DNA from: a virus
Taxonomy: Duplodnaviria; Caudoviricetes
Length of the DNA stretch: 63,679 nucleotides
Virus record (IMG/VR): IMGVR_UViG_3300030102_005966
Location: 1 to 63,679 of that record
Strand: one strand, 5' to 3'
Shown: positions 14,000-49,958 of the stretch, piece by piece
How positions within the stretch are numbered: position 1 is the stretch's first letter
How the letters are laid out: each line of letters starts with the position of its first letter
The notes under the pieces: generated by a model
The model's input: only the letters and a program-made list of their open reading frames with translations
Database searches by the model: none
What the model was told of the DNA's origin: nothing
Program-made: the position numbers and the translations under genes

Positions 14000-14430
14000 G
14001 GTCATCGGAAATCGACTGACCGAGCCGAACGGTTCGCTGGCTGAACTTGATCGCCAGTCGCCGGGAGAGAGAGATCCTGCTCTCCTGCAAATTTGGCTAC
14101 TCATCCTTGATCCCTTCCTTGTTTGGTAAGGCAGATAGGATGAACCCTACGGGGTTTAGGATAGCTACTATGGTAATTGGAGAAGAATATCTTCGACTTT
14201 TGAGGCAATAAAGTTCCCTCATGGAGATGCACAGCATCTAATCGAAGTAACGATCCATGGTGGTAGTGAGCTGGGATGTCCATGCTTTAGCATGGTCATG
14301 AGTCTTGAAGACGCTCGTCTCCCTCACAGTTAACTGGCTAGGAAGCTGAATCATGTAGTGGATGATTAACTGTCCTACAAGGAAACATGTTGGTTAACAA
14401 TTAAACTCCTTCGGGAGACAATTTCAAAGT
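14000..14430 (+). ncRNA. Large structured leader/ncRNA candidate
   Basis: No credible plus-strand ORF; many nested helices with G-U pairs valid only on the plus strand, e.g. taggatag/ctgtccta enclosing gctactatgg/ccatggtggt and cttcga/tcgaag. Confidence 0.55.
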
Positions 14431-14448
14431 TTATAAAGATTTCATTTA

Positions 14449-14503
14449 AACCCGTTTGGATACAATCCAAACACAACCGCTACCTTCGGTAGCTTAGAAA
14501 GGA
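14449..14503 (+). repeat. Early leader element copy 1 (two hairpins + SD)
   Basis: aacccgtttggatacaatccaaacacaaccgctaccttcggtagcttagaaagga directly before the ATG. Confidence 0.9.
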
Positions 14504-14508
14504 ACATC

Positions 14509-15009
14509 ATGGCTAAAGCTAAGATGACCAACCGTAAAACAGCAACTAAGAAAGTTGCTAAGAAAGCTCCTGCCAAACGTAAAGTTTGGAAGAAGCGTCC
14601 AGCAACCAAGAAGGTTGCCAAGGAGACAGCAACCAAGAAGGTTGCTAAGAAGGTGAGTCCAAAGGACTCCACCAAGGAACGGAAGACCGCTCCGGTCTTC
14701 AACCCTCTCGCTACAGCATTTGCTGTAGCTAGGGAAGCAATCGAACTCTTCCGACAGGGAGAGATCGAAGACCTGAGTTTCCTTTACAAGGAACTCACTG
14801 CCTGTTGCTCCGCTAGGAGCAACGGAGACGGTAGCCTTGCATCTCAGATTGAGATGCAACAGTGGAGGCACAACTTTGCCTCCATCCTCTTCGGTATCCT
14901 TGAGGATACCTTGCAAACCGTCGAAGACGGTGGCTCCCTTGAGGAACTCAAGGGTAGGATAGTGGAACAAGTTCCACAAGCTGAGGACTTTGTATCCTCC
15001 ACCCTGTAA
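14509..15009 (+). CDS. First early protein; histone-H1-like basic N-terminus, acidic C-terminal domain
   Basis: ATKKVAK repeats; strong SD. Confidence 0.75.
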   Translation: MAKAKMTNRKTATKKVAKKAPAKRKVWKKRPATKKVAKETATKKVAKKVSPKDSTKERKTAPVFNPLATAFAVAREAIELFRQGEIEDLSFLYKELTACCSARSNGDGSLASQIEMQQWRHNFASILFGILEDTLQTVEDGGSLEELKGRIVEQVPQAEDFVSSTL

Positions 15010-15086
15010 AGGGTAGGAGTTCAAGGAACTCCGAGTCAGGGACACTGTAGGTAACTACAGTGTCCTTGCGTTGGAAGTCTTTGTTT

Positions 15087-15145
15087 AACCCGTTTGTATC
15101 CAAAGGATACAAACACAACCGCTACCTTCGGTAGCTTAGAAAGGA
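15087..15145 (+). repeat. Early leader element copy 2
   Basis: aacccgtttgtatccaaaggatacaaacacaaccgctaccttcggtagcttagaaagga. Confidence 0.9.
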
Positions 15146-15151
15146 TAGCTT

Positions 15152-15403
15152 ATGGATAAGCTATTGGAACTGTTGGATAACATTCTTAACGAATGTACTG
15201 ACAGTGCTGTTATACAGCAACTTGTTTACATGAGGTTGGCTTTAGTCAACCTCAGTAAACGAAAGGGTGGATGCCCTAAGTTCACAACTGTTTACAGTTG
15301 TGCGTTCGGTCATCTCTTTGAAGAGATGATGAAGCTACAGGATGCAGAACTCGAAGAGATCTGCATGGAACTTGATTCCCCTCATGAATATGAGGAAGAA
15401 TAA
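15152..15403 (+). CDS. Small acidic early protein
   Basis: 83 aa, follows a leader element. Confidence 0.7.
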   Translation: MDKLLELLDNILNECTDSAVIQQLVYMRLALVNLSKRKGGCPKFTTVYSCAFGHLFEEMMKLQDAELEEICMELDSPHEYEEE

Positions 15404-15590
15404 AGTGGTCATAAAGACCATCAACTCTCCGATTCAACGGAGAGTATGGCAGAGCATGACTCTTAGTCATGCTATGAAGCAAGCCCCAACTCCATCGGAG
15501 TTAAGGGCTAAGTCGGCAACCCAGTCCAGTAAGGGCTGGGTTGATTTCTTGGAGTCCAGTCTTACAGACTGTAAGCTGAAGCTGGACTGA
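15390..15590 (+). CDS. Hypothetical early protein (start uncertain)
   Basis: ORF overlapping the end of the upstream gene. Confidence 0.45.
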   Translation: MRKNKVVIKTINSPIQRRVWQSMTLSHAMKQAPTPSELRAKSATQSSKGWVDFLESSLTDCKLKLD

Positions 15591-15591
15591 A

Positions 15592-15645
15592 CACTCCACC
15601 CTCCACCCTCTACAGGGTGGAGGGTTCAACCTAAATTAGAAAGGA
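15592..15645 (+). repeat. Second leader class: accctccaccct/agggtggagggt hairpin + SD, copy 1
   Basis: Near-identical copy at 16111-16162; related forms at 22308 and 23941. Confidence 0.8.
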
Positions 15646-15654
15646 ACTTAGCCA

Positions 15655-15882
15655 ATGGCTAATTACATCAACACTTTACAGGAAGCTGTAAAGGAACATC
15701 ATGCTGACAAAGAGAGAGCAATCGAAACAATTAATTGTTTCATGAACTATCTCCAATCATCCAAGTTTTGGAATGATACCACCATCCAAGTTGTAGAAGT
15801 TGCTAGACTTCTACACAACATCAAGTCAGAACTTGATGTTGATAGATACGAACCCGATTGTATCCAAAAGATACAATCATAA
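15655..15882 (+). CDS. Hypothetical early protein
   Basis: 75 aa, SD AGAAAGGA. Confidence 0.7.
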   Translation: MANYINTLQEAVKEHHADKERAIETINCFMNYLQSSKFWNDTTIQVVEVARLLHNIKSELDVDRYEPDCIQKIQS

Positions 15883-15909
15883 CCGCTACCTTCGGTAGCT
15901 TAGGAAGGA
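15851..15909 (+). repeat. Early leader element copy 3 (overlaps the 3' end of the upstream gene)
   Basis: aacccgattgtatccaaaagatacaatcataaccgctaccttcggtagcttaggaagga. Confidence 0.85.
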
Positions 15910-15913
15910 ACTT

Positions 15914-16105
15914 ATGGCATCAAACTATAAGTTTTATAGACGACCAGCAATCGTCATTCGCTCCAACGCTAAAAGCGGTGGAGGCTATGCCCTTCAGAGG
16001 CAGAGCGATGAGCTTTATGAAAAGCTCATGGAGGCAGAGGCAGTGATAAGATCACTGCAAGCGAAGCGGAGACTTCGCATTCCCTTGGAAGACCAAGATT
16101 GGTAG
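15914..16105 (+). CDS. Hypothetical early protein
   Basis: 63 aa after a leader element. Confidence 0.7.
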   Translation: MASNYKFYRRPAIVIRSNAKSGGGYALQRQSDELYEKLMEAEAVIRSLQAKRRLRIPLEDQDW

Positions 16106-16110
16106 TCCAT

Positions 16111-16168
16111 ACTCTACCCTCCACCCTCTACAGGGTGGAGGGTATAACTTAAACAGAAAGGATACAAA
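16111..16168 (+). repeat. Second leader class, copy 2
   Basis: actctaccctccaccctctacagggtggagggt...agaaaggatacaaa. Confidence 0.8.
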
Positions 16169-16173
16169 GTATC

Positions 16174-16395
16174 ATGCCTTCTTTTAGAACCAAGACAGCA
16201 AGTCAGTCTCACCTCGATCTTCGTGAGGCTAAGAGGTCTTGCTGTATACCAAACCACCAAGATACTTGGTGGTTCAAAGACAAGCCTTGGAAGAAACCCA
16301 AGGCTTGGAGAGGATCGAAACTAGCCAAGAGGCTTTCCGCTAAAGCGGAAAGAAAACAAGCAAAGCTTAACTTAAACAGAAAGGATACAAAGTGA
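16174..16395 (+). CDS. Small basic early protein
   Basis: 73 aa, strong SD. Confidence 0.65.
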   Translation: MPSFRTKTASQSHLDLREAKRSCCIPNHQDTWWFKDKPWKKPKAWRGSKLAKRLSAKAERKQAKLNLNRKDTK

Positions 16396-16733
16396 GTATT
16401 GAGAATGATACCGTGACAGGTGGTGAATATCCCTCATGGGATAATCACACTGCAAAGTTATTCAGAGATGCTAAAGCATCTGCTGAACTATTTACTCCAC
16501 CACTTTATAAGTGGATGGAGTATGCTGATGATGATCGTAACCCCCTTGGGGTTACTGATGGTAAGGTTCTTAACCTTACCGAACCCGACCCCGGAGGGGT
16601 CGAAGAGATTGGCTTTGGTATTCCTATGGAATACCAAGATGACACTCCGTCATTTGAAACCCAACCAAAACTTAACCCTGAAGGGTTAAAGAACCTCAAA
16701 GAAAGGACACAAAGTAATGGATACTACGTATAA
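16392..16733 (+). CDS. Hypothetical early protein
   Basis: GTG start after agaaaggatacaaa. Confidence 0.65.
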   Translation: MSIENDTVTGGEYPSWDNHTAKLFRDAKASAELFTPPLYKWMEYADDDRNPLGVTDGKVLNLTEPDPGGVEEIGFGIPMEYQDDTPSFETQPKLNPEGLKNLKERTQSNGYYV

Positions 16734-16932
16734 CGGCTGGAGAAATCGCTCCACTTGGTTAGTTAATGTTTGGTTTAACCCAACATCCTCTGATCTTGAC
16801 TCCATAAAAGAAAGTCTTGATCAAAAGGTAGATGATCTACGTAACTCTAATGATATGCTGGACAACTTCCTCGCTGACCATATCAATTTAGATGAAATTG
16901 ATTGGGAGGAGTTAGCTGAGGCTCTCGCCTAG
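16717..16932 (+). CDS. Conserved small phage protein (YNGW.N..TW.VN.W family)
   Basis: N-terminal TYNGWRNRSTWLVNVWF motif; SD gaaagga. Confidence 0.7.
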   Translation: MDTTYNGWRNRSTWLVNVWFNPTSSDLDSIKESLDQKVDDLRNSNDMLDNFLADHINLDEIDWEELAEALA

Positions 16933-17058
16933 GTGCAGGCGAAAAACACCACCCTCTCGGAAAGGTGGTATAGCATTCTCTAACATAGTGTAGAGAATGC
17001 ATACCTCCTTTCCTTAGAGAGGGGGGTGAGCAACCGAATTTCAAAACCCCCTTTTGAT

Positions 17059-17112
17059 AACCCGTTTGGATTCACTCCAAACACAACTGCCACTACGGTG
17101 GCTTAGAAAGGA
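17059..17112 (+). repeat. Early leader element copy 4
   Basis: aacccgtttggattcactccaaacacaactgccactacggtggcttagaaagga. Confidence 0.9.
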
Positions 17113-17120
17113 CATAGCTT

Positions 17121-18251
17121 ATGGCTAAGTCAGAAGTGCCGATAAGAAAGTTATCGGTTTCAGAAGTTGGTGCTATTGCACCACTCACCTATCAGACAAA
17201 CAGATTCTTCTGTTTGCTGGGCAAGGGAGGCAATGGTAAAACTACCATCGCTTCCACCGTGGTAGCTCCGGCTATCGGAGCTACTAGGGCAATGATCCTG
17301 AACTTCTCAGGATCATCTCCGATGGAGGTTCTTGGTTACGGCATCCCCGATGCTTCTACAAGAGACCTTTGGTTCTCTTGTCCTGAGAATCTCCCTACTA
17401 GGGAGAGGATCGGGGATGAGAAAATCCTTCTCGTCCTTGACGAGTTCACTGACTGGGACTTAGCAGTCCAGTCACTGTTCAAGTCTTGCTTCAACCCTGT
17501 TGATGGTGAGGCGAAGATCGGGACTCACGTTCTTGGTAAGAACGTCAAGATCATGGTGACTGGTAACCGTCGCCAAGACGGTTCCAGTAAGTCTTCGGTT
17601 CTGTCTGCTCCACAAGTGGAGAGACAGTTTACTTACATCCTTGAACCCACTCTTGATGAGTGGATTCAGTGGGTAGCCGACGAAGGCTTCGGTGACTCCG
17701 CCATTTTGACATATCTTGATATGGCAAATGGTCTTGAGGGAGTTGACCATTTCAATCCTATGATTGGAACTTGGGAAGGTGCTCCTCATCCATGTCCTAG
17801 GACATGGGATGCCGCTATCCGGTCAGTGTCTTTGACATCTGACCAGAACCTCCAGTCTATCCTTCTTGAAGGATCGGTTGGAATTGAAGCAGGCTCTGCC
17901 TGTATGTCCTTCTTGAATACTGTAGCAACTATGTTGCCAGTATACAAAAGGATTAGGGATGGAGTGGAAGAGATGGCACTCGACTCTAATGGAGTCGAAC
18001 GCTCACCCCAAGACCAGTATGGTCTTGTCCACTGTGCTCTCCGCAATCTCCTGAAGGAGACTGCGTCAGACCCTGAGGCAGCAGTAGTCGAAGACTCTGC
18101 TGGTAATACTGACATCGACTGGTTCGTCGATAGATTCCTTCTTGCTGGCAAGAATGAGATCGGTGAATGGGGCTACTCCGCTACTAAGCGGAATGGAGTT
18201 CCCATCAACAACCACCCTAAGCGTGAGCGTCTCCAAGGATTTGGAGACTAA
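17121..18251 (+). CDS. MoxR/CbbQ-like AAA+ ATPase
   Basis: Walker A GKGGNGKT, Walker B LLVLDEF, sensor TGN, C-terminal PCPRTW motif. Confidence 0.8.
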   Translation: MAKSEVPIRKLSVSEVGAIAPLTYQTNRFFCLLGKGGNGKTTIASTVVAPAIGATRAMILNFSGSSPMEVLGYGIPDASTRDLWFSCPENLPTRERIGDEKILLVLDEFTDWDLAVQSLFKSCFNPVDGEAKIGTHVLGKNVKIMVTGNRRQDGSSKSSVLSAPQVERQFTYILEPTLDEWIQWVADEGFGDSAILTYLDMANGLEGVDHFNPMIGTWEGAPHPCPRTWDAAIRSVSLTSDQNLQSILLEGSVGIEAGSACMSFLNTVATMLPVYKRIRDGVEEMALDSNGVERSPQDQYGLVHCALRNLLKETASDPEAAVVEDSAGNTDIDWFVDRFLLAGKNEIGEWGYSATKRNGVPINNHPKRERLQGFGD

Positions 18252-18350
18252 GCGCACTCACACTTCCCTCTTAGGAGGGGGGTTAGTAACTACTCTTTAT
18301 GCAGTAAAGAGTAGTTACACCCCCTCCGTTAAGAGAGGGAAGATAAACAA

Positions 18351-18403
18351 AACCGTTTGGATACAATCCAAACACAACTGCTACCTTTGGTAGCTTAGAA
18401 AGG
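18351..18403 (+). repeat. Early leader element copy 5
   Basis: aaccgtttggatacaatccaaacacaactgctacctttggtagcttagaaagg. Confidence 0.9.
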
Positions 18404-18410
18404 GTTAGTT

Positions 18411-19307
18411 ATGGCTAACACTGTTATCGTCGATGACAAAAAGATCGACACCAAAATGCGAAGCATAGTGAAATGCACTTTCACTGCTTCTTGTCCAGCA
18501 GCTACGGTGGTTCACCGTGTTGCCACTGAGAAAGTCAGTGACATCTACAACTCCAGCGACGAAGTCGCTTGGGTAAAGGTAGCTCCGATTCCCCGTAAGG
18601 GGAGTGTCTACGGTAGCTTAACCTCTGTTATTAACTCTACTGGAGTTAAGATCAGAGACATGGGCTTACCTTGTAAGACCGGAGGGACTTACATCCAGTC
18701 TGCTGATATCGAAGAGGTTATTACCATCTTCGATGAAGGTCAGAAGGAACTTGATCGACTTATCAAAGTCGTTCTTCCGGCTGAGTGGGACGGTATCGTA
18801 GCTAAAGCTACGAAGGATATGGGGGAACTTGCTAAAGCAGTTCCCATCCCAACTGCTGAAGTGTTCGGTTCCAAGTTTGGAATGGACATCATTTGGGAGC
18901 ACAGCCCTCAAGATATTGAGGGGACTGTAATGAAAGGAGTTGCCAACGAAGTTGCGGCTCGGATCAGAGCACAATCAAAGAAGTCCACTAAGGACATGTT
19001 TGTCACTGCTCATGGAGCACCTATTCAGGAAGTCATTACCTTCCTGACTGACACAATCAAACACCTTAGTGGTGGTAAGAGGTTGGGTCAGAAGAGGTTC
19101 GACAATGCCGCTAAAGCGGCTCAGAAGTTAGCGAAGAAAAACATTCTCGATCTCCCTGAGATTGAGAGTGTTATCCAAGCTATGGCTTCGATTGGTGCAA
19201 CCAATCGTGATGACATTGTCACTGACAGTGACAAGGATAAAGTCATCGAGAAAGTGAAACACGCTACCAAGGTAGCGTTGACTGCCAAGGCAGACCTTGG
19301 TCTGTAG
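18411..19307 (+). CDS. Helical partner protein of the AAA/vWA module (DUF3150-like by position and character)
   Basis: 298 aa between the AAA and vWA genes; family call is tentative. Confidence 0.5.
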   Translation: MANTVIVDDKKIDTKMRSIVKCTFTASCPAATVVHRVATEKVSDIYNSSDEVAWVKVAPIPRKGSVYGSLTSVINSTGVKIRDMGLPCKTGGTYIQSADIEEVITIFDEGQKELDRLIKVVLPAEWDGIVAKATKDMGELAKAVPIPTAEVFGSKFGMDIIWEHSPQDIEGTVMKGVANEVAARIRAQSKKSTKDMFVTAHGAPIQEVITFLTDTIKHLSGGKRLGQKRFDNAAKAAQKLAKKNILDLPEIESVIQAMASIGATNRDDIVTDSDKDKVIEKVKHATKVALTAKADLGL

Positions 19308-19309
19308 TT

Positions 19310-19364
19310 AACCCGTTTGGATACAATCCAAACACAACTGCCACCTCCGGTGGCTTAGAAAGGA
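19310..19364 (+). repeat. Early leader element copy 6
   Basis: aacccgtttggatacaatccaaacacaactgccacctccggtggcttagaaagga. Confidence 0.9.
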
Positions 19365-19369
19365 ACACT

Positions 19370-20953
19370 ATGAGTGTTGCTGTTAGAGCGAAAGCTCGTG
19401 AAATTCCTAGCTACGTAGTAGCTGGGTCAAAGATATCCGTTCCCATTAATGGGAAGGACATCCTTGCTAGGGCATTGAGAGTAGTCAGAGACTACTGTCC
19501 ACTTGCCTACGGCAAGTTGGTAGCCATGGACTGGTTCGGCACTGACCGAACTGCCTACGGTGCTACCGATGGTAGGAAGCTTTTGCTTAATCCCAAGGGA
19601 TTAGCGAAGCTGGCAGAGACATCCGACCCTGTCGGACTGACTGCCTTCTTGCTTCTCCATGAAGCTTACCATGCTTTGCTTGGTCATGGTCATAGACTGA
19701 AAGGTCTTAACCACGATTTAGCAAATCGTGCCGCTGACTACTCAATCAACTGGTTGATTAGTCAGGAGAACAACAAGTATGATAGGGAACACTTCCCTAT
19801 CATCGAAGGTGCTCTGCTTGATTCTCGCTTTGACAATATGTCAACCATCGAGATATACCGTCAGTTGCTCAAGGAGCAACCCGAACCACCTCAGGGTGAC
19901 AACCCTGAGGGGGGTGGAGGTGGAGAACGGATCAACGTCAACGGCACTCCTAATCCCGAAGGGGATTCGGAGGACGGTGATGGTGACGGAGACACCGAAG
20001 GTGGTAGCACCGAAGGTGAGGACACTGGAAGTGGAAACACCGAAGGTGACGAAGACGGTGAAGGCACTGAAGGTGGAGACACCGAAGGTGACGGCGGGGA
20101 TGACACCGAAGGTGACGACTCCACTAGTGGAGGAGGAGCTGACACCAACCCCGGCAAGCCGAAGTCTGACAGTGAAATTCTCGGAGATGACTTTGCTGGC
20201 AAGGGAGGTCAAGATACCTTCGAGCCGAAGGCTAATCCGAAGGAGAAGAAATCTCAGGAAGAGATTGAGAAGGAGATTGATCAGCACAACGAAAAGGTTG
20301 TGTTGATTGATCGGATGGCTGAATCCTGTGGGATTGGTGGCTCTGCTGGAACACGTTCTGTTGCAGAACAGAACAGTGTTACAAAGAAGCCCTTTGACTG
20401 GGCTTCCTATCTCATCCACTGGATGTCAGCAAGGCTGGATGAAGGTTGGAACAAGATGTTCAACACTCCGATGTATTCCTCTACAGGAATGGTTTGTGCT
20501 GGACGAGAGAGAAAGTCAGCTGGAAAGCTGGTCATCGTCGTAGACGATAGTGGATCTATCTATGATAGACTTCTCAAGTTGTTCTTGCTCTGTGTCCAAG
20601 AAGTCTTGGACGAGATGAAGCCTGAGGTTATACACCTCATTGCTGTAGACAACCACTATCCTACAGAGGATAGACAGTGGGAGTTAAGACCGGGGGACAC
20701 CGTCCCCGACAGACTCCCCAATGGTGGTGGAGGCACTGCTTTTCAGCCAGCATTTGACTGGGTGGAGGACAACTGTCCTGACTGTGATGGTCTTGTCTAC
20801 ATCACTGATGGTCAGAGCTGGGATATCAGTGATATCCGCGAGCCGGACTATCCGGTCTTTTGGTTGAGCTGGTGGCTCAACAAGGATAGCTTCCCCTTTG
20901 GGGACGCTCACCGGATTGATCCATCAATCGCCAGTTACGACCACGGTCGGTAA
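19370..20953 (+). CDS. DUF2201-like metallopeptidase + acidic linker + vWA domain protein
   Basis: ATDG, HEAYH, N.AAD..IN; long G/D/E/T linker; MIDAS VDDSGS, GGGGT, YITDG. Confidence 0.85.
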   Translation: MSVAVRAKAREIPSYVVAGSKISVPINGKDILARALRVVRDYCPLAYGKLVAMDWFGTDRTAYGATDGRKLLLNPKGLAKLAETSDPVGLTAFLLLHEAYHALLGHGHRLKGLNHDLANRAADYSINWLISQENNKYDREHFPIIEGALLDSRFDNMSTIEIYRQLLKEQPEPPQGDNPEGGGGGERINVNGTPNPEGDSEDGDGDGDTEGGSTEGEDTGSGNTEGDEDGEGTEGGDTEGDGGDDTEGDDSTSGGGADTNPGKPKSDSEILGDDFAGKGGQDTFEPKANPKEKKSQEEIEKEIDQHNEKVVLIDRMAESCGIGGSAGTRSVAEQNSVTKKPFDWASYLIHWMSARLDEGWNKMFNTPMYSSTGMVCAGRERKSAGKLVIVVDDSGSIYDRLLKLFLLCVQEVLDEMKPEVIHLIAVDNHYPTEDRQWELRPGDTVPDRLPNGGGGTAFQPAFDWVEDNCPDCDGLVYITDGQSWDISDIREPDYPVFWLSWWLNKDSFPFGDAHRIDPSIASYDHGR

Positions 20954-20994
20954 CCAATCGTCCTAAGCATGACATTAAACTGCTTACTTATACT

Positions 20995-21033
20995 AACCCG
21001 TTTGGATATAATCCAAACACAAAACAGAAAGGA
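20995..21033 (+). repeat. Early leader element copy 7 (first hairpin + SD only)
   Basis: aacccgtttggatataatccaaacacaaaacagaaagga. Confidence 0.8.
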
Positions 21034-21038
21034 AGCCA

Positions 21039-21257
21039 ATGGCTTATGAAAAAATAGCGGTTAAGATTAACCGTAGAGATGGAGATGGAGTGTATTACAT
21101 ACAGTCCATAAAGGGATCAGTAACCCTTACGGTTATCATTGATAACCAAGACGAAACGCTGAGAGTAGGTGACGAAGTGTCTGAGAAGGAGGTTGAATAC
21201 CTCGTTGATCGGCATAGGTCTTACTCTGTAACTATAAGCAGTGTGAAAGGAGGTTAA
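21039..21257 (+). CDS. Hypothetical early protein
   Basis: 72 aa, strong SD. Confidence 0.7.
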   Translation: MAYEKIAVKINRRDGDGVYYIQSIKGSVTLTVIIDNQDETLRVGDEVSEKEVEYLVDRHRSYSVTISSVKGG

Positions 21258-21260
21258 GTT

Positions 21261-21689
21261 ATGTGGATACATAGTGAAAAAGGATTCCTCTCTATAGTAG
21301 AGTTCATTGGGAGTCCCGATAACTTGCTTGTAAGAGCAAGGTATGACGGAGACATTGAACGTATCTTTGGAGAAGATACTTATGTGATGGCTGGAGCTGG
21401 CTCTGACTATGAATTCCGGGCTGTTGTTCCTAGGGAACAAGTGTCTGCTGTCATTCATAGAATGGTTGACGAAATTAGTTACCCTAATTTTAAAGACCGG
21501 ATGGAGAACGTCCATCGTCGCCAACATTCGGACTACCTAGGTAGTATCCACCCTGCTATCAAACCATCAACTGATATGGTTGAAGTAAAGCAAAATGCTT
21601 TACATAGAGTTTGGGAAGTTATGTTCCAAGCTCAACAAGAAGCTGACGCTTGCATAGACTGGACTAATGTAGTCGAGACTAGTGAGTAA
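21261..21689 (+). CDS. Conserved hypothetical protein (MW....GF.S.V...L.VRAR...DY.FR...I.Y.NFK family)
   Basis: Recognisable motif pattern; SD aaaggaggt. Confidence 0.7.
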   Translation: MWIHSEKGFLSIVEFIGSPDNLLVRARYDGDIERIFGEDTYVMAGAGSDYEFRAVVPREQVSAVIHRMVDEISYPNFKDRMENVHRRQHSDYLGSIHPAIKPSTDMVEVKQNALHRVWEVMFQAQQEADACIDWTNVVETSE

Positions 21690-21697
21690 ATAAACAA

Positions 21698-21750
21698 AAC
21701 CGTTTGGATACAATCCAAACACAACTGCCACTACGGTGGCTTAGAAAGGA
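21698..21750 (+). repeat. Early leader element copy 8
   Basis: aaccgtttggatacaatccaaacacaactgccactacggtggcttagaaagga. Confidence 0.9.
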
Positions 21751-21755
21751 TCAAC

Positions 21756-22295
21756 ATGAAAGATGTTGAAACTAAAGTAGCCGATTACATCGGTAAAAAT
21801 CCTGCATTTAGAATGCAGGTAGCTAAGTTCCTGCTGTCACAGGAACTATTAGAAGAGGGTTATACCCTGAGTTCTTCGGAACCGGAGGTGACCACTCCCC
21901 CCAAACAAGAGAGGGTAAAGAACACGACCACTACTGGTCATGTTCTCTACTGGAGCAACAAACTTCTGAATGACAGAGCAGAGGAAGTTGCTAGGATAAT
22001 TCAGGAACTTGTTCCTGACACCACCCTTGATGGATGCCGTGGTAAAAACACCAACGGTATGAAGTCGGTTGTTCACAACCTGTGGCGAGGCAAGAAAGCA
22101 GTGGATGCTGTTGAACTGGCGTTAGGTGAACCTAACTCCATAAAGTCCCGAAGGACTATTGGAAGACAAACCGCTAGTCGGTTTGTCAATCGCTTCCTAG
22201 TTCCTTACTTCCTCCTTGAGGACAGGGGACACTTCGATAAGGCAGACCCTTCCAAGGGAATGGGTCTTGAGGATTTAATTGCTTCAAACCTGTAG
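21756..22295 (+). CDS. Hypothetical early protein
   Basis: 179 aa after a leader element. Confidence 0.7.
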   Translation: MKDVETKVADYIGKNPAFRMQVAKFLLSQELLEEGYTLSSSEPEVTTPPKQERVKNTTTTGHVLYWSNKLLNDRAEEVARIIQELVPDTTLDGCRGKNTNGMKSVVHNLWRGKKAVDAVELALGEPNSIKSRRTIGRQTASRFVNRFLVPYFLLEDRGHFDKADPSKGMGLEDLIASNL

Positions 22296-22377
22296 CAATT
22301 AATCCACACTCCACCCTGTCTCCTCCACACTGGAGGAGGCAGGGTATTAAACAACAAACAAGAAAGGATACAAAACA

Positions 22378-22698
22378 ATGAGTGTTTTGACAAAGACCGT
22401 GAAGACGGAAACAAAAGAACCGCTACCGAGTGTAGCGGAATTATTAGAACTGCTGGAAAACATCAGCAGTCACATGAACGAAGCCAGTAGTTTACTGGGG
22501 GATGTTGAAGGCTATGTCGAAGACGTAGTCGAAGAGGTTAAGGGTATAGACGGGGAGAACAAATCCTATGAGGTAGAGCAGTTGCTCTACGAGAATGTCA
22601 TACTCCAAGCTGATAGCATCAGCATCGACAATGAAATTGGCGAGGTCAATGATATTGTTAATAGCCTCCATAATGATATGGAGGTAGGTGATGAGTGA
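22378..22698 (+). CDS. Highly acidic small protein
   Basis: 106 aa, Glu/Asp-rich, SD agaaaggatacaaaa. Confidence 0.7.
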   Translation: MSVLTKTVKTETKEPLPSVAELLELLENISSHMNEASSLLGDVEGYVEDVVEEVKGIDGENKSYEVEQLLYENVILQADSISIDNEIGEVNDIVNSLHNDMEVGDE

Positions 22699-22855
22699 AT
22701 CAACAGAGGACTTCTTAGAAAGGTTTGAGCAATTCTTAATGAAAGAAGTTGGCGAGAACTGGTACTACGAATTCACAATGGAAGAAGACTCAACCTTATA
22801 CTTCAAGGTATTGAATGTGTGGGGTGAGCAGTTCAAGGAGGACAACGATGAGTAG
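22691..22855 (+). CDS. Small acidic protein, 54 aa
   Basis: Manual: MSESTEDFLERFEQFLMKEVGENWYYEF...; SD ggaggt; overlaps both neighbours. Confidence 0.55.
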   Translation: MSESTEDFLERFEQFLMKEVGENWYYEFTMEEDSTLYFKVLNVWGEQFKEDNDE

Positions 22856-22961
22856 CAAAATAGAAATGATACTTTCGTTGATCACGCTACCCACTATAGG
22901 AATAGTGGGGTTCTTGGTGATGATCATCAAAGAGAAACTAAACAGAAAGGATACAAAGTGA
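22848..22961 (+). CDS. 37-aa single-TM peptide
   Basis: Manual: MSSKIEMILSLITLPTIGIVGFLVMIIKEKLNRKDTK*; SD aaggagg. Confidence 0.5.
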   Translation: MSSKIEMILSLITLPTIGIVGFLVMIIKEKLNRKDTK

Positions 22962-23287
22962 AGATTATAAATATACTTGTAGGAGATGCAGATCAAGCTA
23001 CCGACATTTGTCGGATGCTTAATCACGCCGAAGCAGTAGGAGAACTCGACTTCTCCTTTGACGTATCAGTAACAGATACTGAATCGGATGAAGATGAAGA
23101 ACCGGAGGTTGTCATGTCATGGGATAGAGAGATGTTCTTTGAGGATGACGAAGTCACCGATGAGGAGTGGGCTGAGTGTTGTGCTAAAGCAAATGGCATG
23201 GACTGCTCCGGAATATGGGAGGATGTGGCTTTTACAATCGAAACTCATCTAAAGGAGATGAGGGAAGCAAAGAAAGGAGATGCCTAA
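22958..23287 (+). CDS. Acidic hypothetical protein
   Basis: 109 aa, GTG after agaaaggatacaaa. Confidence 0.7.
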   Translation: MKIINILVGDADQATDICRMLNHAEAVGELDFSFDVSVTDTESDEDEEPEVVMSWDREMFFEDDEVTDEEWAECCAKANGMDCSGIWEDVAFTIETHLKEMREAKKGDA

Positions 23288-23444
23288 CATCAAGATGTTC
23301 ATCTACAAATCGGGCGACTACTGGAAGATATGTTCTTCCAACAACCCAACCAATGTGATTACTCTTGATGACCCGAAGGGTGCAAAGAGAATTGCTTGGT
23401 GCTTGGGCTGGAAGTTGGTTCGCAAAAAGGAATGGGACTCTTAG
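23280..23444 (+). CDS. Small protein, 54 aa
   Basis: Manual: MPNIKMFIYKSGDYWKICSSNNP...; agaaagg SD. Confidence 0.45.
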   Translation: MPNIKMFIYKSGDYWKICSSNNPTNVITLDDPKGAKRIAWCLGWKLVRKKEWDS

Positions 23445-23457
23445 TCCTGCCAATATA

Positions 23458-23551
23458 TTTAAGACCAGTGGTAGCCCTGCTGGTGCATAGCTTTGTAATG
23501 GCGGATGTCATTACCTATGTGCTGGCGGGGTTACTTATGGTCTATAGAAAC
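23458..23551 (+). ncRNA. Long G-U-rich RNA hairpin
   Basis: ggtagccctgctggtgcatag pairs with ctatgtgctggcggggttact through many G-U wobbles, valid on the plus strand only. Confidence 0.6.
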
Positions 23552-23605
23552 TGCATGTTAATGCAACAGCAACAAGATAAAACAAGATAAAAGGAGATAA
23601 TTAAA

Positions 23606-23926
23606 ATGAAGAAAAAATATTACACACTTTTTGTTACGGAAGAAAGTGATTATCATTGTGAAAGGATAGTCGCAACTTACGAGGCTGAAGAAAACTCAAA
23701 CCCAAAAGATCTTTTTGATCTATTCTTAGAAGAACAAAATGAGAAGAACGCTTGTTGGAGTGCAACAGAGGGAAAAATACCTAACAACAACTCATCGTAT
23801 GTAGTCGAAGGAATAACAGTATCAGACTCTCCTGTATACTTCATCCATTTAGATGAAGTAGATGGAAGTAAATACAATAAGGGTTTAGGACTCATTCACG
23901 ATCCATCAAACAGACTAGGATTTTAG
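23606..23926 (+). CDS. Hypothetical protein
   Basis: 106 aa, SD aaaggag, more AT-rich than neighbours. Confidence 0.7.
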   Translation: MKKKYYTLFVTEESDYHCERIVATYEAEENSNPKDLFDLFLEEQNEKNACWSATEGKIPNNNSSYVVEGITVSDSPVYFIHLDEVDGSKYNKGLGLIHDPSNRLGF

Positions 23927-23984
23927 TCCCGAATATTAATAGCCCCCTCTTCGGAGGGGGCATCCAAAACAGAAAGGATACAAA

Positions 23985-24299
23985 GTGAGTAAACAAAAAG
24001 AAATTCATGTAGAATACGAGTTGATTTTGCGGTATCAAACCGACACTGAACTCGTCTTAGACGTAAGAAAAGATACTGTCGATTCAGATGGCGAACCTAT
24101 AGAAGAAGAGTATGTCGAAGGATTTTTCTACGACCATCGGGATCTCAAGAAAAACTATAAAGATGCTGTCACAGAATTCCTTGAACTAAAAGAAAAATAT
24201 CCCGATGCTCATGTCACCGATGATATTCTAGAGGAAGCAACAGAGTTATTAGCAATCCGTTACGGCAAAGGCTCATGGGAGGTAGCATCAAATGGGTGA
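23985..24299 (+). CDS. Acidic hypothetical protein
   Basis: 104 aa, GTG after agaaaggatacaaa. Confidence 0.7.
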   Translation: MSKQKEIHVEYELILRYQTDTELVLDVRKDTVDSDGEPIEEEYVEGFFYDHRDLKKNYKDAVTEFLELKEKYPDAHVTDDILEEATELLAIRYGKGSWEVASNG

Positions 24300-24627
24300 A
24301 CGAAATCCCAAGAACAAATCAGTCTACGTGGTGGAGCTTGAGCTTGCTGTTTCAGAACGGGGGTTCTTCAAGAAGAACAACCCTGACTACAAGGAAGGTC
24401 AACCATGCGTCTACGTAGGCATGACCGGACGCGAACCAACCGAAAGGTTTGCAGTCCATAAGAGTGACAGCCCGAAGGGAAGCCGAAAGGTAAGACGCTT
24501 CGGGATCAAACTCCTACCGGAGTTATACGAACACCTCAATCCCATGACATGGGATGAGGCTACTAAGCAAGAAAAAGAACTGGCTGACACCCTCCGTAGC
24601 AAAGGCTACGGAGTGGTGCAGTCTTAA
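24292..24627 (+). CDS. GIY-YIG-like nuclease
   Basis: SVYVVEL...CVYVGMTG..P.ERF..H...E..LA motif pattern. Confidence 0.7.
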   Translation: MGERNPKNKSVYVVELELAVSERGFFKKNNPDYKEGQPCVYVGMTGREPTERFAVHKSDSPKGSRKVRRFGIKLLPELYEHLNPMTWDEATKQEKELADTLRSKGYGVVQS

Positions 24628-24643
24628 CGAGAAAGGATACAAA

Positions 24644-25057
24644 ATGGTTAGGCTACTTTATAGTGATGTCCCTCGTATTTACGAGAAAGACCAACGGTGG
24701 GAAAACTCCATGATACCTTATGCTGATCATTACGTTATGAGTAATGGAAATCTTACAAGGCTCGAAGGAACAGACCCCGGACACAGCTACGGTTACTTTG
24801 CTACAACCGTAGCCCAAGGAATAGTAATGGACACTCCACCGGAGATGGAACATCGCAATCAAAGCCCAATCCCCTGCATATACGAAGATAACTGGATGCA
24901 TTTCAAGTGGGAAGTTATCGACCAACTGCTCCCGATCTATGATCGTGCTGACGATTGGACTAGCGAAGTTGGTTTGGATAAAGAGGTAGTGGATCAGACA
25001 GAGTGGGACTCATGGTGTAAACCTGCTGATGGTTGGGATTCACTTGATGTCTATTAA
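24644..25057 (+). CDS. Paralog 1 of the E.NWM.F....D.LLPI.D family
   Basis: Start re-assigned to the ATG after gaaaggatacaaa; shares the motif with the next two genes. Confidence 0.7.
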   Translation: MVRLLYSDVPRIYEKDQRWENSMIPYADHYVMSNGNLTRLEGTDPGHSYGYFATTVAQGIVMDTPPEMEHRNQSPIPCIYEDNWMHFKWEVIDQLLPIYDRADDWTSEVGLDKEVVDQTEWDSWCKPADGWDSLDVY

Positions 25058-25074
25058 AATAGAAAGGATACAAA

Positions 25075-25566
25075 ATGGTTAAGCTAACAAAACAGACTAG
25101 TGGTGGATATAATCATCCACGATTAATCCGAAACAATAAAGGGGACACGGTAAATTCTTTTACGGTGTATAACTCTGAGTGGTATGACGAACAACTTGCT
25201 GACTGCAGTGGCGACTTGATGTATACTCGCGGTGAAACAGCGATTCCGGAGGAAGATATTCTGAATGCAAAAGAATCCGGTCGGTCGCGTCGGTGGCGAC
25301 CCGACGAAAGTAACTGGATGGACTTCCAAATATCTGTTCATGATGAACTTCTTCCCATCTACGATGATTGTGTGAGGGACAATGATTGGTATTGCAGAAA
25401 GCGAAGGGGGTGTCACTCTTCCTTCGCCATCGGTGAGGGAAGTATTCCTGCACCAGCAGAGGGAGACTTCAACCACGCTAGAAGAACCCATACCTATTAC
25501 CAATCAGTGGCAGAGATGAGGGAAGCAGACAAAAAAGCTGAAGAAAAAAGGATACAAAATGGTTAA
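25075..25566 (+). CDS. Paralog 2 of the E.NWM.F....D.LLPI.D family
   Basis: ESNWMDFQISVHDELLPIYDD. Confidence 0.7.
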   Translation: MVKLTKQTSGGYNHPRLIRNNKGDTVNSFTVYNSEWYDEQLADCSGDLMYTRGETAIPEEDILNAKESGRSRRWRPDESNWMDFQISVHDELLPIYDDCVRDNDWYCRKRRGCHSSFAIGEGSIPAPAEGDFNHARRTHTYYQSVAEMREADKKAEEKRIQNG

Positions 25567-25894
25567 GCTAACGACGACGAGATATCCCCCTAGTCCTGTT
25601 ACAGGGAAGAGGGGTGGAGGTTTCCGGACTGTATATAATACAGACTGGATAAAAACTCCCCACTACTATGGGGCTACGGATGTTATCCAACATACTGAAT
25701 GGAAATGGGGGCGCGGGGCTACCTATCTCTTGGAGATTCCGGAGGAAGCTATTGATAACAAAAAAGAAAGCTTTCCTAATGAAAGTAATTGGATGAACTT
25801 CCAAGTTCATGCTCAAGATGAACTTCTTCCCATCTTCGATGATTATGCGAGAGAGATTTATGAGAATGCTCACCGGGATGGAGTTCCATTCTAA
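25559..25894 (+). CDS. Paralog 3 of the E.NWM.F....D.LLPI.D family
   Basis: ESNWMNFQVHAQDELLPIFDD. Confidence 0.7.
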   Translation: MVKLTTTRYPPSPVTGKRGGGFRTVYNTDWIKTPHYYGATDVIQHTEWKWGRGATYLLEIPEEAIDNKKESFPNESNWMNFQVHAQDELLPIFDDYAREIYENAHRDGVPF

Positions 25895-26040
25895 ACGAAC
25901 AGAGACTAGGAAATCGTAGGAGAGCTACGATCCGGGTTCTTTTATACTTACTTATCCCGTGTGGGGTTAAGTAAGAAAGTAACTGGAAGGGTTATATTTG
26001 TTTTCCCCCAGTTCACCCTCATTGAACACTCTGTTTGTTT

Positions 26041-26081
26041 ACCCCCTTGTCTACCTCACGGTAGGCAAGGGGGTTTTTTTT
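26041..26081 (+). terminator. Intrinsic terminator ending the early block
   Basis: cccccttgtctacc-tcac-ggtaggcaaggggg followed by a T9 run. Confidence 0.85.
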
Positions 26082-26196
26082 ATGTCCACACTCCACACTC
26101 CACCATTTTTAATGGTTCGTGGTTGGCGTTAGCCAACACCAACACCCATGCCACTCCCGTATACGCGAGTATACGGGGCTTTAAAAACCCACATTT

Positions 26197-26242
26197 GCCC
26201 AGTTCTCAGTCGCACATAGCGATTGGGGGCTGGGCTTTTTTT
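26197..26242 (+). terminator. Second tandem intrinsic terminator
   Basis: gcccagttctcagtcgc...gcgattgggggctgggc followed by a T-run. Confidence 0.75.
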
Positions 26243-26602
26243 GTGCCTACGAACAGGGGGTAGGACAACGGCGGGGGGACACGCACACCTTTTTCGATTG
26301 GCGGTTTTGTATCCAAACTAGCCACCACTAAAGAGGGGGGTTGAAAAAATGAGATGATGCACCCCTTTATTTTTTGGCGTTTTTGTATCCAAGCTGGTTT
26401 CAGGGTTAATCGAGATAAGATTTCTATAGAGTTAAGTCGTTGATAATAAGGGAGGGATAACCCGTTTGAATACATTTAATTTTAGTTACAGAGTGTTAAA
26501 CCTCCCGACGAAAGTAAGTATGTGGCGGAAAAGAATTTAATTAGGGGGTGTATGAACTCGAGACACGTAGTTTTTGTATCGCCTGCCACGCAGCCGCACG
26601 CA

Positions 26603-26698
26603 GCGCGGGCTTTTTAAACTGATTTGGATACAAAATGAATTTACCGGGCGCGGGCTTTTTAAACTGATTTGGATACAAAATAAATTTACCGGGCGCGG
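26603..26698. repeat. 45-bp direct repeat x2 containing TTTGGATACAAAA
   Basis: gcgcgggctttttaaactgatttggatacaaaat(g/a)aatttaccgg at 26603 and 26648; flanked by inverted cgcagccg/cggctgcg. Confidence 0.9.
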
Positions 26699-26741
26699 AC
26701 GGCTGCGCGGGCAGCGTAATCGTTTTTGTATCCAAAGTCCT

Positions 26742-26786
26742 TACGTGTGTGCGCGTGTGCGTGTGCGTGTGCGTGTGCACACGTGT
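26742..26786. repeat. 45-nt alternating pyrimidine/purine tract, (GTGTGC)n-like
   Basis: tacgtgtgtgcgcgtgtgcgtgtgcgtgtgcgtgtgcacacgtgt. Confidence 0.9.
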
Positions 26787-26796
26787 CGCGGGGGAG

Positions 26797-26844
26797 GAGC
26801 AGGACATGTTACCCTTGAAAGAGCAGGACATGTTACCCTTGAAA
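26797..26844. repeat. 24-bp perfect tandem repeat x2
   Basis: gagcaggacatgttacccttgaaa twice. Confidence 0.9.
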
Positions 26845-26898
26845 AAGAATTGGAATCTGTTCTTTACATGTTAAAATATATGGCTATATGTTATAACC

Positions 26899-27231
26899 AT
26901 GAAGATCGTTAGAGAGATACTTCCGAACGGAGTCCCTATGGTTGTTCAAGCTGAAATAGATGAGCATAATGATATCATCGACGGTTCGGTAAAGGTGTTT
27001 CCAATCTTCCCTTCCCCTCAAGAGAATACGGAGGAAGCTTTAATGGACAGTTTAGGCACGCCCGTCATAGAACTAGACCCACACAAATGCCACATAGGGG
27101 AGGAGTTCCCCTTCGATTGTTCAAAGTTTGAGCGAAGGCTACAGAAAACCCTTAACCACAGTTACGCCAAAGAATTCCTAAAATTCATAATGAACCCTGA
27201 CCAAGACCAAGACCAAGACCAAGACCAATGA
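26899..27231 (+). CDS. Hypothetical protein ending in a (DQ)5 repeat
   Basis: 110 aa; TGTTATAAC immediately before the ATG suggests a leaderless transcript. Confidence 0.65.
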   Translation: MKIVREILPNGVPMVVQAEIDEHNDIIDGSVKVFPIFPSPQENTEEALMDSLGTPVIELDPHKCHIGEEFPFDCSKFERRLQKTLNHSYAKEFLKFIMNPDQDQDQDQDQ

Positions 27232-27575
27232 GTTTAAATCTACAACGTAAAATAGATGGAGCGGATATACGTGACGCTATCTCTGAATTATCCGGCTTCA
27301 GTTCAGCTGAACTAGCAGACCCCCAGCTAAGGTGGAATAGAAAGATAGCATCTTGGAGGGCACTCGGGCTTTACATCGGTAGGGAGCGGGGACTCTCTTA
27401 CAAAGATGTGGCTAATTTCTTTGGTGTCCACGGCATGACTGCCTACCACTCGTATAAAAAAGTAACTTATGAGTTGGCTACAGACGAAACCGTATCCAAC
27501 TTGATCAAAAAAATAGAATACAAAATAGATAACAAACATGAAAACGACGACCGCGAAATCCAAGACTCCCCTTAG
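27228..27575 (+). CDS. Stand-alone DnaA domain IV-like helix-turn-helix protein
   Basis: R.RKIASWRALGLYIGRERGLSYKDVANFFGVHGMTAYHSYKKV...D..V..LI..I follows the DnaA C-terminal pattern R...a..Rq.aMYL.r....Sl..IG..F..dHtTV.ha..KI. Confidence 0.65.
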   Translation: MSLNLQRKIDGADIRDAISELSGFSSAELADPQLRWNRKIASWRALGLYIGRERGLSYKDVANFFGVHGMTAYHSYKKVTYELATDETVSNLIKKIEYKIDNKHENDDREIQDSP

Positions 27576-27846
27576 GCACATCCCATGCCCAACTTTTGGT
27601 TACTCCGTATGGAGGGCACAGCAGGGCGTTAACCTAATCGGGCATGAGGACTTGGTTCTACTCAACTTTATAGAATGTGACAAAGGGGGCTTCCAATGCC
27701 TAAGTATGTTGACTACCGAAGAGGAAGATCGTTACCATATTCTCGGTAGCAAGGAAGACGATTTGAATACAATCCTGTTTAGTGGAACTGACAGGCGCAT
27801 GGCAGAAAGATACTTCTACCACATGGCTTCCCGATATCTAGAATAA
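27538..27846 (+). CDS. Hypothetical protein
   Basis: 102 aa, last gene before a convergent terminator. Confidence 0.6.
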   Translation: MKTTTAKSKTPLRHIPCPTFGYSVWRAQQGVNLIGHEDLVLLNFIECDKGGFQCLSMLTTEEEDRYHILGSKEDDLNTILFSGTDRRMAERYFYHMASRYLE

Positions 27847-27876
27847 GGTTCGTGCTGTCTCCTTATTCTAGGGGTG

Positions 27877-27913
27877 AACCCCGATTCGACCACTACTCGG
27901 ATCGGGGTTTTTT
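27877..27913 (+). terminator. Terminator between convergent genes
   Basis: aaccccgat...atcggggtt followed by a T-run. Confidence 0.75.
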
Positions 27914-49929: not shown

Positions 49930-49958
49930 TTGAAATTTTTGAATACAAAGAGTATAAT
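49930..49958 (+). promoter_or_regulatory. Strong sigma70-like promoter of the plus-strand terS/replication operon
   Basis: TTGAAA-N17-TATAAT ending 9 nt before GTG 49968; the spacer contains the box variant TTTGAATACAAA. Confidence 0.75.

Follow-up and report, generated by a model that had tools for sequence, protein, structure and literature searches.

In DnaA, as described in PMC5742627, the helix of residues 434-451 occupies the major groove, where it recognises TnCACA of the DnaA box; TTA is read by Arg399, and the T435M substitution abolishes box binding. The A-site of the ABC primosome is presented in PMC6127211 as a single-stranded DNA hairpin bearing a DnaA box. In T4-type phages, promoter early stem-loops (PeSLs) are described as stem-loop cassettes between early genes, where recombination gains or loses genes (PMC2839356, PMC4122927). 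The early promoters of phage N4 are described as short hairpins that combine conserved bases with variable bases needing only to pair (PMC4496689). Here, we analysed a Caudoviricetes genome (IMG/VR record IMGVR_UViG_3300030102_005966; 63,679 bp, hereafter the window) in which a repeated motif, TTTGGATACAAA, occurs together with a 115-aa open reading frame (ORF) at 27228-27575, whose predicted product resembles domain IV of DnaA. An earlier reading made from the letters and the ORFs (the sequence-only reading) had proposed that the two belong to one regulon, the protein being a re-specified DnaA-type binder of the motif.

The translation of ORF 27228-27575 contains FFGVHGMTAYHSYKKV. On its own, the protein was matched neither in Pfam (E up to 1) nor in PHROGs. 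With phmmer, its full length could be related to the DNA-binding domain of Mycobacterium tuberculosis DnaA (PDB 3pvp) at E 0.084, and in NCBIfam residues 7-100 matched the last 94 positions (344-437) of the DnaA model TIGR00362 at E 0.0027. An exhaustive HMMER search identified 10 proteins at E up to 0.001. A family alignment of eight sequences was then assembled from the window protein, five small relatives from the ten, P0002 and P0003; P0004, P0005 and P0011 were left out, being multi-helix-turn-helix (HTH) repeat proteins with short-stretch matches only. Pfam Bac_DnaA_C (PF08299) is matched by 6/8 of the aligned proteins (best E 1.2e-16), and P0009 and P0003 reach 60.9 and 43.5 bits, compared with a curated cut-off of 31.5. 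When the family profile was searched against the PDB, the six best matches were all DnaA (7.3e-12 to 2.5e-6), including 3pvp (7.3e-12), 1j1v (8e-8) and 8btg (2.2e-7). The AlphaFold2 model of the 115-aa protein has a pLDDT of 82.2 and a pTM of 0.74. Its eight best Foldseek matches in the PDB are again all DnaA, with TM-scores (TMt) of 0.89-0.90 and root-mean-square deviations (rmsd) of 1.3-1.4 Å for 3pvp and a TMt of 0.88 for 1j1v; the rmsd to isolated DnaA domains is 1.3-1.6 Å. The likeness to domain IV, a helical domain with a basic loop and an HTH, thus extends across the whole domain, at TM 0.88-0.90 to 3PVP and 1J1V. Because phmmer, NCBIfam, the family profile and Foldseek agree, we regard the predicted assignment of ORF 27228-27575 as a standalone domain of the DnaA domain IV fold as settled. 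The likeness that the sequence-only reading had noticed is therefore borne out by the family profile and by the model.

Unlike DnaA, the phage protein stands alone. The ORF covers domain IV only, without the AAA+ domain III and without the N-terminal domains, and so lacks the ATPase, oligomerisation and helicase-loading parts of DnaA. Having no AAA+ domain, it cannot melt DNA as DnaA does; no AAA+ match was found in the neighbouring ORFs either. A further difference is that its gene sits in a lytic-type phage genome. In titles and abstracts, no published phage DnaA domain IV protein was found; all that appeared was work on phage proteins binding to DnaA and an inovirus survey that mentions Bac_DnaA_C.

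An altered recognition helix had also been suspected. By alignment, H68-G69-M70-T71-A72-Y73-H74 corresponds to D-H-T-T-V-L-H of E. coli DnaA, which we take to be D433-H434-T435-T436-V437-L438-H439. The base-contacting positions align with H68, G69, M70 and H74 of the phage protein, and only H74 is kept, so that three of the four are indeed changed. A methionine at the T435 position would disable canonical recognition, which fits a changed specificity.

The motif itself is strongly over-represented. With at most one mismatch and on both strands, TTTGGATACAAA has 17 matches in the window, whereas 100 dinucleotide-shuffled versions give 0.45 on average and 4 at most, and Markov models of orders 1-5 predict 0.46-2.44. 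Eleven of the 17 lie within 14455-26736; the six found outside 14300-26900 also exceed the Markov expectation of 0.36-1.17. Exact copies of the half-box GGATACAAA number 18 against 0.41 expected, 16 of them within 14989-26733. The excess is thus large against both backgrounds, the coordinates given by the sequence-only reading all hold to within 1 nt, and TTTGGATACAAA is shown to be a real cis element. The motif occurs in three settings: in hairpin 1 of eight leader cassettes, in eight ribosome-site cassettes and as five copies in a non-coding locus. The duplex form of the 12-mer box is TTTGGATACAAAA, and the form at ribosome sites is AAAGGATACAAA. Compared with the DnaA box TTATCCACA, the 9-mer GTATCCAAA is the same at 7/9 positions, the differing ones being positions 1 and 8, in agreement with the two differences counted earlier; the TATCCA core is among the positions in common. 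A 7/9 match is reached by 1.2-1.5% of random or real 12-mers of the window, which supports, by sequence comparison, a DnaA-box likeness beyond chance. The canonical DnaA box TTATNCACA has zero copies in the window.

The five non-coding copies precede the gene of the DnaA-like protein. The features of this region, and the promoter-like site of the replication module in which a further box-like sequence was found, are as follows.

25895-26898: non-coding locus of about 1 kb, with boxes, terminators, repeats and an AT-rich trough
26041-26074 and 26197-26235: strong terminators in the non-coding locus
26306-26317, minus strand: box
26382-26393, minus strand: box (CTTG)
26420-26499: AT-rich trough, GC 0.30 versus 0.46 for the genome
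26459-26474: leader-like AACCCGTTTGAATACA in the trough, holding the variant TTTGAATACA at 26465 after AACCCG, as in the leaders
26571-26583: variant box TTTTTGTATCGCC
26603-26692: two 45-nt repeats
26623-26634, plus strand: box inside a 45-nt repeat
26668-26679, plus strand: box inside a 45-nt repeat
26725-26736, minus strand: box
26745-26785: alternating purine-pyrimidine TG/CG run of about 40 nt, made of GTGTGCGC variants, between the last box and the 24-mers
26797-26844: two exact tandem 24-mers, GAGCAGGACATGTTACCCTTGAAA, immediately ahead of the promoter-like site that precedes the three-gene unit
26850-26877: promoter-like TTGGAA-16-TAAAAT, ahead of the three-gene unit
26899-27231, plus strand: ORF of 110 aa, first of the three-gene unit
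27228-27575, plus strand: ORF of 115 aa, predicted standalone DnaA domain IV fold with the altered helix VHGMTAYHS
27538-27846, plus strand: ORF of 102 aa, followed by a bidirectional terminator at 27876-27910
49930-49958, plus strand: promoter-like TTGAAA-17-TATAAT, 11/12 sigma-70-like, ahead of an HTH gene and the replication module

The cluster and the variants at 26465 and 26571 are present as first described: the five boxes and the two variants fit into 430 bp, the boxes flank the AT-rich trough, and gene 27228-27575 begins about 490 bp after the last box. As at oriC, the boxes cluster beside an AT-rich stretch, so that, judged by sequence, a candidate initiator-site cluster is found where an origin would have one. 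The likeness extends to iteron and DnaA-box origins, with repeated sites in both orientations, an AT-rich stretch and the gene of a candidate binder adjoining. A difference is that this phage combines DNA polymerase A with a helicase and a primase, a set that in T7-type phages works without an initiator. The non-coding boxes lie outside hairpins and in both orientations, which implies a reader of duplex DNA. Far from this array, the promoter-like site at 49930-49958 scores best among the sigma-70-like sites of the parts of the window scanned, and the box-like TTTGAATACAAA (49938-49949, 1 mismatch) fills its 17-nt spacer. The two other ORFs of the three-gene unit, 26899-27231 and 27538-27846, gave only weak matches (TyrR N-terminal, E 0.0094; PadR, E about 1; ZPR1, E 0.035) and scores of at most 0.83 in the Atlas; the AlphaFold2 model of the former has a pLDDT of 54.

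Relatives of this locus are rare. The 115-aa ORF has none in IMG/VR and none among one genome per prokaryote species; in GenBank phages only matches at E 0.04-0.7 in Pseudomonas phages were obtained, and none for P0003. P0023 and P0024 are absent from the IMG/VR matches. A metagenome scan gave one contig of 1189 bp, L022, the single close relative recovered, with 74% nucleotide identity. It encodes a DnaA-IV-like protein 72% identical to that of the window and an ORF 78% identical to the 110-aa ORF. L022 keeps the gene together with two exact boxes, and the blocks around these, 20 and 27 nt long, are invariant, whereas the neighbouring sequence is changed, one 45-nt repeat is missing and the TG/CG run is shorter. 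What the sequence-only reading had named as contrary to it, namely a motif at background level, another fold, or relatives keeping the boxes without the gene, was not observed.

Read depth showed one irregularity in this region: the summed contig depth over 27096-27552 rises to 148 and 1395 in two runs. This jump is probably caused by the (GACCAA)n acidic repeat at 27205-27228 drawing in unrelated contigs; a loose contig end there reads CAGGACCAGGACCAG.

We tentatively propose, at a little less than an even chance, that the 115-aa protein reads the box. According to this predicted pairing, the protein would recognise the diverged DnaA box as duplex DNA. Its main array would be the five boxes around the AT trough, upstream of its own three-gene unit, and would form an origin-like or autoregulatory locus. 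Further sites would be the eight early leader hairpins and the spacer of the replication-module promoter-like site. After its synthesis, the protein would dampen transcription of the early genes and modulate the replication genes, acting as a site marker, a repressor or a recruiter. The leader hairpins and the start-codon copies of GGATACAAA also have a second, protein-independent role as small regulatory cassettes, made of one or two hairpins and a ribosome site, and related phages recombine at such cassettes between short early genes, thereby gaining and losing genes. Domain IV is the part with which the bacterial initiator reads DNA; if the pairing is true, a free-standing, re-specified domain IV with its cognate box would mean that phages borrow and retune the origin-recognition module of their hosts, and the pair would provide a compact system for specificity change in the DnaA-IV fold.

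The leader cassettes belong to the early block, a plus-strand block of genes at 14.5-26 kb. Six of them (hairpin 1 at 14455, 15093, 15857, 18356, 19316 and 21703) can be aligned and share the order AACCCG, hairpin 1, CACAAC, hairpin 2, TTAGAAAGGA and ATG. The sequence-only reading was right that hairpin 1 is built on the motif; its count of six leaders has to be raised to eight, with those at 17065 and 21001 added.

14449-14508, plus strand: leader 1, with AACCCG, hairpin 1 TTTGGATACAATCCAAA (14455-14471), CACAAC, hairpin 2 GCTACCTTCGGTAGC, TTAGAAAGGA and the ATG of ORF 14509-15009
15087-15151, plus strand: leader 2, hairpin 1 TTTGTATCCAAAGGATACAAA (15093-15113), full box on the minus strand
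15851-15913, plus strand: leader 3, hairpin 1 ATTGTATCCAAAAGATACAAT (15857-15877), box on the minus strand; overlaps the end of ORF 15655-15882
17059-17120, plus strand: leader 4, hairpin 1 TTTGGATTCACTCCAAA (17065-17081), ahead of the ATPase ORF 17121-18251
18350-18410, plus strand: leader 5, hairpin 1 at 18356-18372
19310-19369, plus strand: leader 6, hairpin 1 at 19316-19332, ahead of the VWA/DUF2201 ORF 19370-20953
20995-21038, plus strand: leader 7, a hybrid with AACCCG, hairpin 1 TTTGGATATAATCCAAA (21001-21017) and CACAAAACAGAAAGGA, without hairpin 2
21697-21755, plus strand: leader 8, hairpin 1 at 21703-21719

Seven leaders were folded and all seven give two tandem hairpins, with z values of -3.0 to -4.7. 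Hairpin 1 comes in five versions that differ in sequence; their stems have 7-10 pairs, the closing G-C included, and their loops 3-5 nt. Six leaders carry the 9-mer TTTGGATAC on the plus strand (8/9 at 17065); in the other two it is found on the minus strand, its position almost unchanged. In 3/7 copies of hairpin 2, a U-A pair is replaced by C-G, a compensatory change. In the hybrid leader 7, the hairpin TTTGGATATAATCCAAA passes directly into AAACAGAAAGGA. The leader hairpins are stable and have no T-run; since the early block contains no strong terminator before 26041, long hairpin-carrying transcripts are likely. An IMG/VR pattern scan with the leader hairpin gave one match, unrelated, and a scan with the hairpin-2 pattern matched leucine-rich-repeat coding repeats.

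Apart from its leader, the first early ORF (14509-15009, plus strand) begins with lysine/alanine-rich repeats (KKVAKK...), which presumably resemble histone H1 or AlgP tails.

The third setting of the motif is at start codons. As reported earlier, half-box copies precede several early genes: we count eight copies of AAACAGAAAGGATACAAA, all on the plus strand, ending 0-5 nt before ATG or GTG.

16149-16173, plus strand: cassette AACTTAAACAGAAAGGATACAAAG with the box at 16160-16168; one end of a 223-nt deletion in a natural variant
16372-16394, plus strand: cassette with the box at 16383-16391, abutting GTG 16392; other end of the 223-nt deletion
22366-22374, plus strand: GGATACAAA ahead of ATG 22378
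22949-22957, plus strand: GGATACAAA abutting GTG 22958
23976-23984, plus strand: GGATACAAA abutting GTG 23985
24635-24643, plus strand: GGATACAAA abutting ATG 24644; one end of a 431-nt deletion that three runs show
25066-25074, plus strand: GGATACAAA abutting ATG 25075; other end of the 431-nt deletion
25550-25558, plus strand: GGATACAAA abutting ATG 25559

Recombination joints were sought by comparing contigs of four public runs, from four studies, with positions 14300-28000. Of the 14 joints listed, nine coincide with cassettes, several of them recurring in two or three runs from different studies. Joint 14512->15086 goes from leader to leader in two runs, and ORF 14509-15009 is absent from these variants. 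Joint 16144->16368 shares 26 nt; joint 24629->25061 shares 21 nt in three runs and removes ORF 24644-25057. Further joints are 22350->23966, 22373->22691, 22383->22836 and 23575->23971, and joint 26656->26707 drops a single 45-nt repeat, a loss found in L022 too. Recombination at the cassettes therefore adds and removes the genes that lie between them. This resembles PeSLs, as small conserved stem-loop cassettes lie among short early genes and their copies recombine to delete, duplicate or swap genes. Unlike PeSLs, the cassettes of this phage, which is unrelated to the T4-type phages, have no recognisable -35/-10 pair; they consist of two hairpins without T-runs and a ribosome site, and a second, shorter type is the ribosome site alone. 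The gene shuffling at cassettes, observed directly in public marine metagenomes, extends the PeSL idea beyond T4-type phages. An IMG/VR scan with the ribosome-site 15-mer returned at least 117 single chance matches.

Two observations on the early ORFs may be added here. ORFs 24644-25057, 25075-25566 and 25559-25894 (plus strand) share the same cassette and first codons (ATGGTTAAG or ATGGTTAGG, then CTA), and are likely paralogues. In the ORF list made here, AGGA, GGAG or GAGG is found at -4 to -20 in 22/23 early ORFs (14509-25894) versus 3/36 others. Either translation initiation differs between the early block and the rest, or the early block is of separate origin; the restriction of ribosome sites to this block hints at a translational division of labour.

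Several of these observations weigh against the pairing of protein and box. Taken alone, the 115-aa window protein stays below every Pfam threshold, and the chance probability of the DnaA-box resemblance, 1-4%, is not negligible after the fact. The helix of L022 differs at G69S, T71S, S75A and Y76H with the boxes unchanged, so that co-variation was not found in the two sequences compared. The tandem 24-mer is, from its position, an equally adjacent candidate target. In L022 both of its copies (165-212) carry the same two substitutions, which reflects either concerted evolution or an operator co-evolving with its binder; tandem repeats also homogenise by themselves, which tempers the 24-mer as a rival target. 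The start-codon half-boxes share only GTATCC with the DnaA-like 9-mer. They are part of the longer conserved cassette AAACAGAAAGGATACAAA, a recombination breakpoint, and recombination is an ordinary reason for uniform ribosome-site copies, which weakens each copy as a regulatory site; some of the "regulon" may thus consist of a mobile regulatory cassette. A perfect hairpin 1 is kept despite varying sequence, stem length and box strand. This conservation of pairing argues for a structure-dependent function, which a DnaA-type monomer reading 9 bp leaves unexplained. In favour of the pairing, a 59-kb genome (G001, 98% complete) whose giant protein is 26% identical to that of the window contains neither a DnaA-IV match at E up to 1 nor GGATACAAA, so that gene and boxes are absent together; this is weak evidence, because at the distance of G001 no regulatory motif would be expected in common. 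Its most repeated 10-mers, considered as a possible leader, were rejected as a coding tandem repeat. In sum, a DnaA-type binder is supported in part, by the fold, the altered helix, the DnaA-like box, the array at the AT trough and the linkage in L022. The regulon link is plausible and specific, but in its simple form it is weakened by the hairpins and the cassettes, and mobile regulatory cassettes account better for part of the spread of the motif.

The alternative that survives best, which we consider unlikely though still of some weight, is that all copies of the motif are cis cassettes read by host machinery and that the DnaA-IV-like protein has another target, either the DnaA boxes of the host or the 24-mer repeated in tandem at its own promoter. 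The cassette might then be a promoter with a -10 TAYAAT inside hairpin 1. It might also be an intercistronic site of RNA processing and stabilisation, hairpin 1 ending the upstream RNA, cleavage taking place in CACAAC and hairpin 2 protecting the downstream RNA. This would agree with the two tandem hairpins in every folded leader, the pairing kept in hairpin 1, the compensatory change in hairpin 2 and the probable long transcripts. TACAAT or TATAAT occurs at hairpin positions 7-12 in 5/8 leaders, the cassettes recombine like PeSLs, and the 24-mer pair changes in concert in L022. However, no conserved -35 was found upstream of the leaders, and sigma-70-like sites are not enriched in the early block (24 versus 20.3 expected). 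Moreover, a role in RNA only does not explain five non-hairpin boxes in both orientations, conserved in a relative, nor does it account for the promoter-spacer box 23 kb away and the likeness to a DnaA box beside a DnaA-fold gene.

It seems improbable that the boxes are read by another binder of duplex DNA, either host DnaA, to which they would be weak DnaA boxes, or the HTH protein encoded at 49968-50573. Host DnaA could be considered since the box is 7/9 identical to the DnaA box, but nothing suggests its recruitment because the window has no canonical copy. The HTH protein (201 aa) has an N-terminal HTH (HTH_23, 6.3e-6; Terminase_5, 1e-4) and weak small-terminase PHROG matches, its gene adjoins that of the large terminase, the two lying back to back, and its own promoter-like site carries a box. 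As a possible small terminase, it may make the non-coding array a packaging site. Its gene is nevertheless separated from the array by 23 kb; the DnaA-fold gene lies much nearer, at 0.5 kb, and is still linked to boxes in L022.

The pairing of the 115-aa protein with the box could be taken further, into a private "DnaA-box code" to which we give a low probability. A domain-IV-only protein would read one 12-mer at the array, the promoter spacer and the eight hairpin stems, and the hairpins would prime: extruded or on single-stranded DNA, they would mark primase-helicase loading, like an A-site. In this way, a single small protein would link early shut-off with the expression of the replication genes and with priming. 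As in the A-site, a DnaA-box-type 9-mer lies in a short hairpin stem; the difference is that at the A-site, as described in PMC6127211, DnaA recruits DnaB-DnaC via domains I and III, which the phage protein lacks.

Very improbable, finally, is an N4-type reading in which hairpin 1 is a promoter read as extruded single-stranded DNA by a virion RNA polymerase within the 5938-aa ORF, transcription starting in CACAAC about 11 nt past the loop centre: hairpin 1 does mix fixed and freely varying paired bases, as described for N4 early promoters (PMC4496689), the giant ORF has the size of a virion protein and the early block contains a gene pair for an N4-like ATPase and a VWA protein, but PHROGs, Pfam, PDB sequences and the Atlas give no polymerase signal in the giant ORF (a very diverged domain being possible), N4 hairpins are GC-rich with 3-nt loops whereas hairpin 1 is AT-rich with loops that vary from 3 to 5, other modules have sigma-70-like sites, and the motif also occurs outside hairpins, which this reading leaves unexplained.

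The giant ORF (27912-45728, minus strand; 5938 aa) makes up 28% of the genome. It has no match in Pfam, PHROGs, PDB sequences or the Atlas, and its only relatives, two giant proteins encoded on phage contigs, have 4757 and 5015 aa.

The window is the complete 63.7-kb genome of a very novel, uncultured marine phage. The IMG/VR record is rated 100% complete and linear, and near-identical DNA in public sequencing runs comes from marine metagenomes, with no RNA run among them. GenBank phages gave no megablast match to 14300-27900. Rfam and tRNA scans gave nothing relevant, a search with the VWA protein led only to distant loci (L007-L021), which were not used, and no host clue was obtained from the large terminase and the DNA polymerase. 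Besides the ATPase and VWA/DUF2201 ORFs of the early block, the recognised replication and packaging genes are those of the large terminase, a helicase, an exonuclease, a family A DNA polymerase and a primase. The GC skew of the window tracks gene direction only.

Two further regions deserve mention. The ORFs at 2-730 and 62880-63608 (both minus strand, each about 242 aa) have identical upstream 32 nt and different first codons; they are either tandem paralogues across the record ends or the mark of the record's opening. The segment 13230-14450, about 1.2 kb without a convincing ORF, separates the divergent structural and early modules. It is dense in different perfect palindromes with arms of 10-14 bp (about 13310, 13350, 13405, 13545, 13590, 13650 and 13685), and GCTCTGCTAAAGCAGAGC is present in it twice.

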